Origin: a virus
Taxonomy: Duplodnaviria; Heunggongvirae; Uroviricota; Caudoviricetes
IMG/VR virus record: IMGVR_UViG_638341084_000005
Length of the DNA stretch: 4,683 nt
Strand: one strand, 5' to 3'
A program made the translations under genes and the position numbers. Below are positions 3,488-3,530 of the stretch, one piece after another. Under the pieces are notes generated by a model. The model was not told the DNA's origin. It did not search any database and saw only the letters and a list, made by a program, of their open reading frames with translations. How positions within the stretch are numbered: the first letter of the stretch is position 1; each line of letters opens with the position of its first letter.

Positions 3488-3530
3488 AATAAAAACTTGC
3501 AAAATCAATTAGTTTACCCTTAATCCCTGT
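3488..3530. other. Prophage/host attachment junction; the crossover core lies somewhere in this AT-rich interval
   Basis: Lies between the int stop (3487) and the first codons with MlrA-like translation (IPVTLRAWQRRYGLLKPQ from ~3523). The exact core cannot be set without the other prophage end or an uninterrupted mlrA sequence. Confidence 0.45.

Follow-up and report, generated by a model that had tools for sequence, protein, structure and literature searches.

The window analysed here is a stretch of 4,683 nucleotides from a virus record of the Caudoviricetes (IMG/VR IMGVR_UViG_638341084_000005). In it, an excisionase gene (xis) and an integrase gene (int) are followed by a phage-derived attachment-site arm, a 20-bp attachment (att) core, a piece of the host regulatory gene mlrA (yehV) and the right end of the insertion sequence (IS) IS679. 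This arrangement almost certainly represents the integrase-proximal junction of a lambda-like prophage of the VT1-Sakai/CP-933V type in the 5' coding region of mlrA, to which IS679 has been added. The anatomy of the sequence was determined in this study, as were the junction's identity and its frequency, while the phenotypic consequence is taken from the literature.

The sequence from 3526 to 3865 agrees with mlrA of Escherichia coli K-12 MG1655 at 333 of 340 positions (97.9%), starting at Pro17 (codon 17), and its translation is identical to K-12 MlrA residues 17-129 (113/113). Pfam matches were obtained to MlrA_helical (PF22270) and to a clipped MerR_1 (PF13411); the latter begins at position 16 of the 69 in the profile, which fits a helix-turn-helix (HTH) domain that has been clipped N-terminally. 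Full-length MlrA aligns with solved CarH/MerR-type HTH domains from residue 3, and therefore the missing piece includes the start of the DNA-binding domain. RefSeq annotates mlrA at this fragment in hundreds of genomes. The mlrA copy beside int is without promoter, start codon, codons 1-16 and HTH helix 1, and IS679 takes the place of its C-terminal 114 codons from 3866 onward; judged by this extent, the mlrA of the window is a gene fragment and not a complete gene. That mlrA without its 5' end follows the integrase had been proposed in the original prediction from the letters alone, and the 113 identical residues, the 340-bp alignment and the recurrence of the same junction in 458 genomes bear this out. 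The prediction placed the int stop correctly at 3487, while its gap of about 35 bp measures 38 bp and its loss of about 15 codons is one of 16, the identity starting at Pro17. Likewise, the block that it gave as 3523-3867 is indeed mlrA, but it starts at 3526 and ends at 3865, at IS679 and not at the natural end of the gene; that IS679 cuts this same copy at 3866 had gone unmentioned.

The att core was defined by an ungapped comparison of the window with attB of K-12, the two prophage ends of E. coli O111:H2 strain 12A, attP of phage phi330 and the VT1-Sakai record. This comparison, which follows the earlier proposal to align the junction with an uninterrupted mlrA, yielded a 20-bp core corresponding to mlrA codons 17-23. 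K-12 attB, phi330 attP, the VT1-Sakai att and each of the two prophage junctions in strain 12A contain CCTGTCACGTTACGCGCGTG without a mismatch. The misc_recomb feature of the VT1-Sakai record, labelled 'attachment site of Enterobacteria phage VT1-Sakai', coincides with the core over 20 of 20 bp, and the same record describes yehV as 'divided by the insertion of prophage'. The edges are marked by the ends of phage records: on the right, the matches to the BP-4795 and phi330 records stop at 3545, and on the left, the match to PhiR5_1 stops at 3526, the first base of that record. Strand exchange would fall somewhere within these 20 bp, the exact exchange points being putative, and the crossover thus lies in the 5' coding region of mlrA as first supposed. 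The arm that separates the int stop codon from the core is identical in VT1-Sakai, phi330 and strain 12A and unrelated to the K-12 sequence upstream of mlrA codon 17. An alignment with a 1-base gap had suggested that homology starts at 3520 (TTAAT); this was rejected, as the ungapped comparison of four att forms puts the core start at 3526. In the phi330 record (PV189401.1; positions 4851-4890 of the fetched stretch) the core occurs as a perfect tandem duplicate, which is probably a product of assembling the record from prophage ends and not a real attP structure. The coordinates of all features are given in the table.

Table. Features of the 4,683-nucleotide window, in order of position.
Feature	Position	Strand	Basis or remark
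Protein of unannotated function, 171 aa	159-671	+	phrog_9263; no Pfam match
252-aa protein	671-1429	+	Short DUF551 match at the C-terminal end; Ea22 in the PhiR5_1 annotation
DUF4222 protein	1514-1756	+	Listing of open reading frames and domain searches
44-aa open reading frame	1760-1894	+	Listing of open reading frames
Excisionase gene xis, 84 aa	1913-2167	+	Pfam DUF1233 putative excisionase, E=2e-29; PHROG 539, E=1.6e-37
Integrase gene int, 428 aa	2201-3487 (stop codon 3485-3487)	+	Listing of open reading frames; Pfam; PHROG 1 integrase
Two candidate arm-type integrase sites, TGTCCCAT and TGCCCCAT	3454-3461 and 3465-3472	+	Inside the 3' end of int
Phage-derived attachment-site arm	3488-3525	+	38 bp, AT-rich; between int stop and core
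att core CCTGTCACGTTACGCGCGTG, 20 bp	3526-3545	+	mlrA codons 17-23
Host mlrA fragment	3546-3865	+	Follows the core; from codon 23 into codon 130, of which one base remains
Right end of IS679 (IS66 family)	3866-4683	-	Terminal repeat starts GTAAGCGGCTCG at 3866
Transposase gene tnpC	From 3896, off the window end	-	Pfam DDE_Tnp_IS66 and IS66 C-terminal element

The order of xis, int with an arm-binding domain, and attP directly downstream is that of a lambda-type integration module. The integrase matches Arm-DNA-bind_2 (PF12167) over residues 7-70 (E=2.1e-24) and Phage_integrase (PF00589) over residues 203-396 (E=5.4e-18). By this combination of an N-terminal arm-binding and a C-terminal catalytic domain, it is a lambda-Int-type (heterobivalent) tyrosine recombinase; its kinship to solved tyrosine recombinases is distant only (best E=1.5e-7). 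Repeats of the motif TG[TC]CCCA[AT], all on the same strand and spaced 10-11 bp apart, occur as two copies on the arm next to int and as three copies on the opposite attP arm, there at +134 to +162 from the core (reverse strand of the fetched 12A sequence). The 620 bp of reconstructed attP thus hold five same-strand copies, compared with eight on both strands of a background of approximately 66 kb, made up of the strain 12A prophage with its host flanks. A 23-nt block containing the motif is repeated on the other attP arm of phi330, where the motif is conserved. Within the window alone, the two copies were not significant, the same being reached in 35 of 200 shuffles. The repeats may represent arm-type integrase binding sites, a role predicted here from their placement on both arms.

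From these elements, a sequence of events can be proposed. The integrase, together with host factors, would recombine attP with attB within the common core in mlrA codons 17-23. The promoter and codons 1-22 of mlrA would thereby come to lie at the distal boundary of the prophage, which in the closest relative is about 50 kb off, and the copy left beside int would begin at codon 17, without promoter, start and first helix of the MerR-type HTH. Since these parts are lost, activation of csgD by MlrA should cease, and less curli and biofilm should be formed. Codon 130 of this fragment would later have been hit by a transposing IS679, and even a precise excision would then leave mlrA broken.

The claim that integration inactivates a host regulator agrees with published work. 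A prophage in mlrA has been shown to disrupt the DNA-binding motif and to reduce curli, biofilm and Congo-red binding (PMC5931665), and a link to reduced curli and biofilm was also reported in a second study (PMC3874044). The distal mlrA fragments can arise by run-off transcription and restore some Congo-red affinity, but not biofilm (PMC5931665).

Among known systems, the prophage VT1-Sakai (Sp15)/CP-933V at yehV of O157:H7 is a close counterpart: the 20-bp core and the arm between int and core are identical, the elements lie in the same orientation, and the split in the host gene likewise falls at codons 17-23. The VT1-Sakai record, in which int and xis are annotated, matches the window over int, xis and the early-left region, with an overall DNA match of 95.8%. 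The two differ in the early-left genes upstream of 134, and in the window mlrA is additionally cut by IS679. The module also resembles that of phage lambda in its two-domain integrase, the position of xis directly upstream of int and of attP directly downstream, the short core common to phage and host and the repeated candidate arm sites on both arms, which are here predicted only. In lambda, attB is intergenic, located between gal and bio, whereas the core described here lies inside a protein-coding gene and its use destroys that gene.

Several points weigh against our interpretation. The window itself contains one junction, and the reciprocal one, like the remainder of the prophage and the 3' portion of mlrA, is known from relatives only; a reduction of curli and biofilm in this particular strain would follow by analogy with the published cases; and an annotation of the fragment as a 233-aa MlrA that is not flagged as a pseudogene would, at face value, denote an intact gene. 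In one rival view, no whole inducible prophage remains at mlrA but only a remnant comprising its int-xis-ea22 end. Only about 3.5 kb of phage DNA, with the integrase-proximal junction alone, is visible in the window; truncated yehV prophages have been described in O157:H7, 'truncations' being named in the title of Shaikh and Tarr; and IS elements are active in the source strain, as seen from IS679 at 3866. Against this stand the intactness of all seven phage open reading frames of the window, as judged by the listing of open reading frames, Pfam and PHROG, and the situation in the closest relative. The genome of strain 12A is 100% identical to window positions 1-3866 and contains an entire prophage (about 50 kb) between two mlrA junctions, with the core duplicated at both ends. 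The far junction, some 50 kb away and adjoining btsS, consists of mlrA codons 1-22 followed by phage DNA with an immediate TGA. A remnant is therefore unlikely, and even if it were true, mlrA would still be interrupted. The original prediction had called for a reciprocal junction carrying about the first 45 nt of mlrA; such a junction does exist in strain 12A, with 22 codons, and lies outside the window for the source strain, where it would be expected to read mlrA codons 1-22, the core and then the phage arm ACGCAACATTTTTAAAAATCG.

In strain 12A, the Prokaryotic Genome Annotation Pipeline (PGAP) of RefSeq annotates the region corresponding to 3508-3867 (9508-10209 of the fetched sequence) as a 233-aa 'HTH-type transcriptional regulator MlrA' (WP_027661874.1) that starts with ATT at 3508 and bears no pseudogene flag. 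Taken literally, this entry in a genome that matches the window at 100% would mean that the post-integrase mlrA is complete and functional with an N-terminus supplied by the phage, and that the regulator is not inactivated. A scan of 3300-3900 found no terminator-like site between int and the mlrA fragment; read-through is thus possible, the absence is compatible with run-off transcription, and distal fragments driven by run-off have been described. The only terminator-like site in this region lies on the minus strand, a count equal to chance expectation, and no promoter-like site was found in the same scan. However, no in-frame ATG, GTG or TTG is present from the stop at 3490 to the TTG at 3562, and no Shine-Dalgarno-like sequence precedes 3508. 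The in-frame codons 3508-3525 (ISLPLI) belong to the phage arm and not to mlrA, so that residues 1-16 would be swapped for six unrelated residues. In solved relatives the MerR/CarH-type HTH alignment begins at residue 3, and the MerR_1 match begins at profile position 16. Moreover, recombinant distal fragments did not restore biofilm, and in the window the reading frame is cut at codon 130 by IS679. We therefore regard a functional product as highly improbable; the 233-aa annotation is probably an artefact that hides the disruption of the gene in many genomes. A complete mlrA with a merely misplaced start, which had been named at the outset as one way in which the assignment could fail, was ruled out because relatives have the first 16 codons at the opposite end of the prophage and because a canonical start is lacking; the other, that the sequence is not mlrA at all, is contradicted by its identity with K-12.

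The 818 bp of IS679 contained in the window are 99.6-99.8% identical to annotated copies of this element, and three reference copies, each of 2704 bp and flanked by 8-bp target duplications, begin at exactly base 3866. The window shares with the known element (2704 bp; tnpA-tnpB-tnpC) the identical GTAAGCG terminal repeat and a tnpC with DDE_Tnp_IS66, only the tnpC end of the element being included. IS679 splits mlrA codon 130 behind its first base, and mlrA is hence disrupted twice. By analogy with the three reference copies, the target duplication is predicted to be ACTTCAAT (3858-3865). If the transposition was a simple one, the left end of IS679 would adjoin ...ACTTCAATG(C/T)CA..., that is, the remaining mlrA with the duplication ACTTCAAT. 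This insertion site in codon 130 was found in no other sequence searched: none of 5426 complete E. coli genomes contains the mlrA::IS679 junction (none covers the window past 3866), no exact 35-mer match was obtained in GTDB representative genomes or JGI metagenome contigs, and the fusion open reading frame, with any of its three possible starts, had no exact protein match. A search of the literature that combined IS679 with mlrA returned only an irrelevant paper. Because the junction is absent from the genomes, contigs and called proteins searched, it is considered strain-specific.

The idea that these juxtapositions are assembly chimeras, in which contigs were joined through repeats, is scarcely credible: the window does end in a multicopy IS and start in the region annotated as ead/Ea22-like in strain 12A, a pattern typical of short-read contigs, and the mlrA::IS679 junction was found nowhere else, but the int-mlrA junction recurs unchanged in hundreds of finished genomes, and the IS679 join coincides with the outermost base of its terminal inverted repeat, which is characteristic of transposition; chimeras caused by repeat collapse have their joins within the repeat. 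Genes of the ead/Ea22-like type recur among lambdoid phages. Since the join is at the exact IS terminus, real transposition is favoured over misassembly.

For a prophage-split mlrA that has received a second insertion, we infer that IS679 came after the prophage. As IS679 cuts mlrA again, excision of the prophage could not restore the gene in this strain. It is conceivable, though rather unlikely, that the element represents a selected 'lock', an irreversible loss of MlrA-dependent curli, more than neutral decay; if true, the option of restoring mlrA by prophage excision would have been removed in this lineage. The mlrA prophage junction as such is already known in detail, and the IS679 insertion is the only new element, an ordinary and strain-specific one.

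To determine how common the junction is, the 5426 complete E. coli genomes were compared with the window. The int-mlrA junction (3400-3866, coverage of at least 80%) was detected in 458 of them and an uninterrupted attB region in 4944. Based on these counts, the mlrA site appears to be occupied in roughly 9% of finished E. coli genomes, almost always by this integrase type. In a published study, yehV was occupied in 53 of 55 O157:H7 and in 4 of 19 non-O157 Shiga toxin-producing E. coli (PMC3874044). The yehV left-junction primers F and B of that study have perfect matches in the window, at 3016-3035 and 3817-3839, giving a predicted product of 824 bp, the size published there (PMC3874044). Primer B anneals upstream of IS679, and therefore the 'unoccupied site' polymerase chain reaction (PCR) with primers A and B would miss the insertion. 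Strains scored as 'mlrA restored/intact' by occupancy PCR could thus still be mlrA-null, which is a small practical reservation where mlrA status is deduced from junction PCR.

Occupancy of mlrA by a prophage is a recognised cause of low curli and biofilm formation in most clinical O157:H7 and in some other pathogenic E. coli, and mlrA/yehV is a standard typing locus for Shiga toxin (Stx) phages; the window illustrates this cleanly, its 20-bp core being precisely delimited. The assignment of yehV/mlrA as an integration site of Stx1 and other lambdoid prophages is upheld by the 'divided' yehV and the identical 20-bp att of the VT1-Sakai record and extends to further phages, as the int/att module is common to the Stx1 phages VT1-Sakai, YYZ-2008 and BP-4795, the Stx2a phages Stx2a_1447 and WGPS2 and stx-free lambdoid phages. 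The caution expressed at first was well placed: the window does not reach the stretch beyond Q and the tRNA genes where stx would lie, and does not show whether the prophage carries it. No stx annotation was found in the two closest complete relatives, the 12A prophage (100%) and PhiR5_1 (99.2%), and in the strain 12A prophage no stx genes follow the tRNA-Ile/Arg/Arg cluster. Strain 12A has IS679 at other chromosomal sites, and we infer that a related O111-type enteropathogenic E. coli background of the source strain is plausible.

The remaining phage genes of the window belong to the early-left region. The xis counterpart in strain 12A, where the window is matched at 100%, is annotated xisR. 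The 171-aa protein encoded at 159-671 shows a D...E-A-K pattern (DAMGF...IEAKCS) that is reminiscent of PD-(D/E)XK nucleases; in its strain 12A counterpart, PGAP marks only the part corresponding to 159-337, as a 'frameshifted' pseudogene. Beside the far att junction of the strain 12A prophage (36068-40201 of the fetched sequence) lie a DUF1076 gene and a large DUF4765 gene, which are possible cargo or effector genes.
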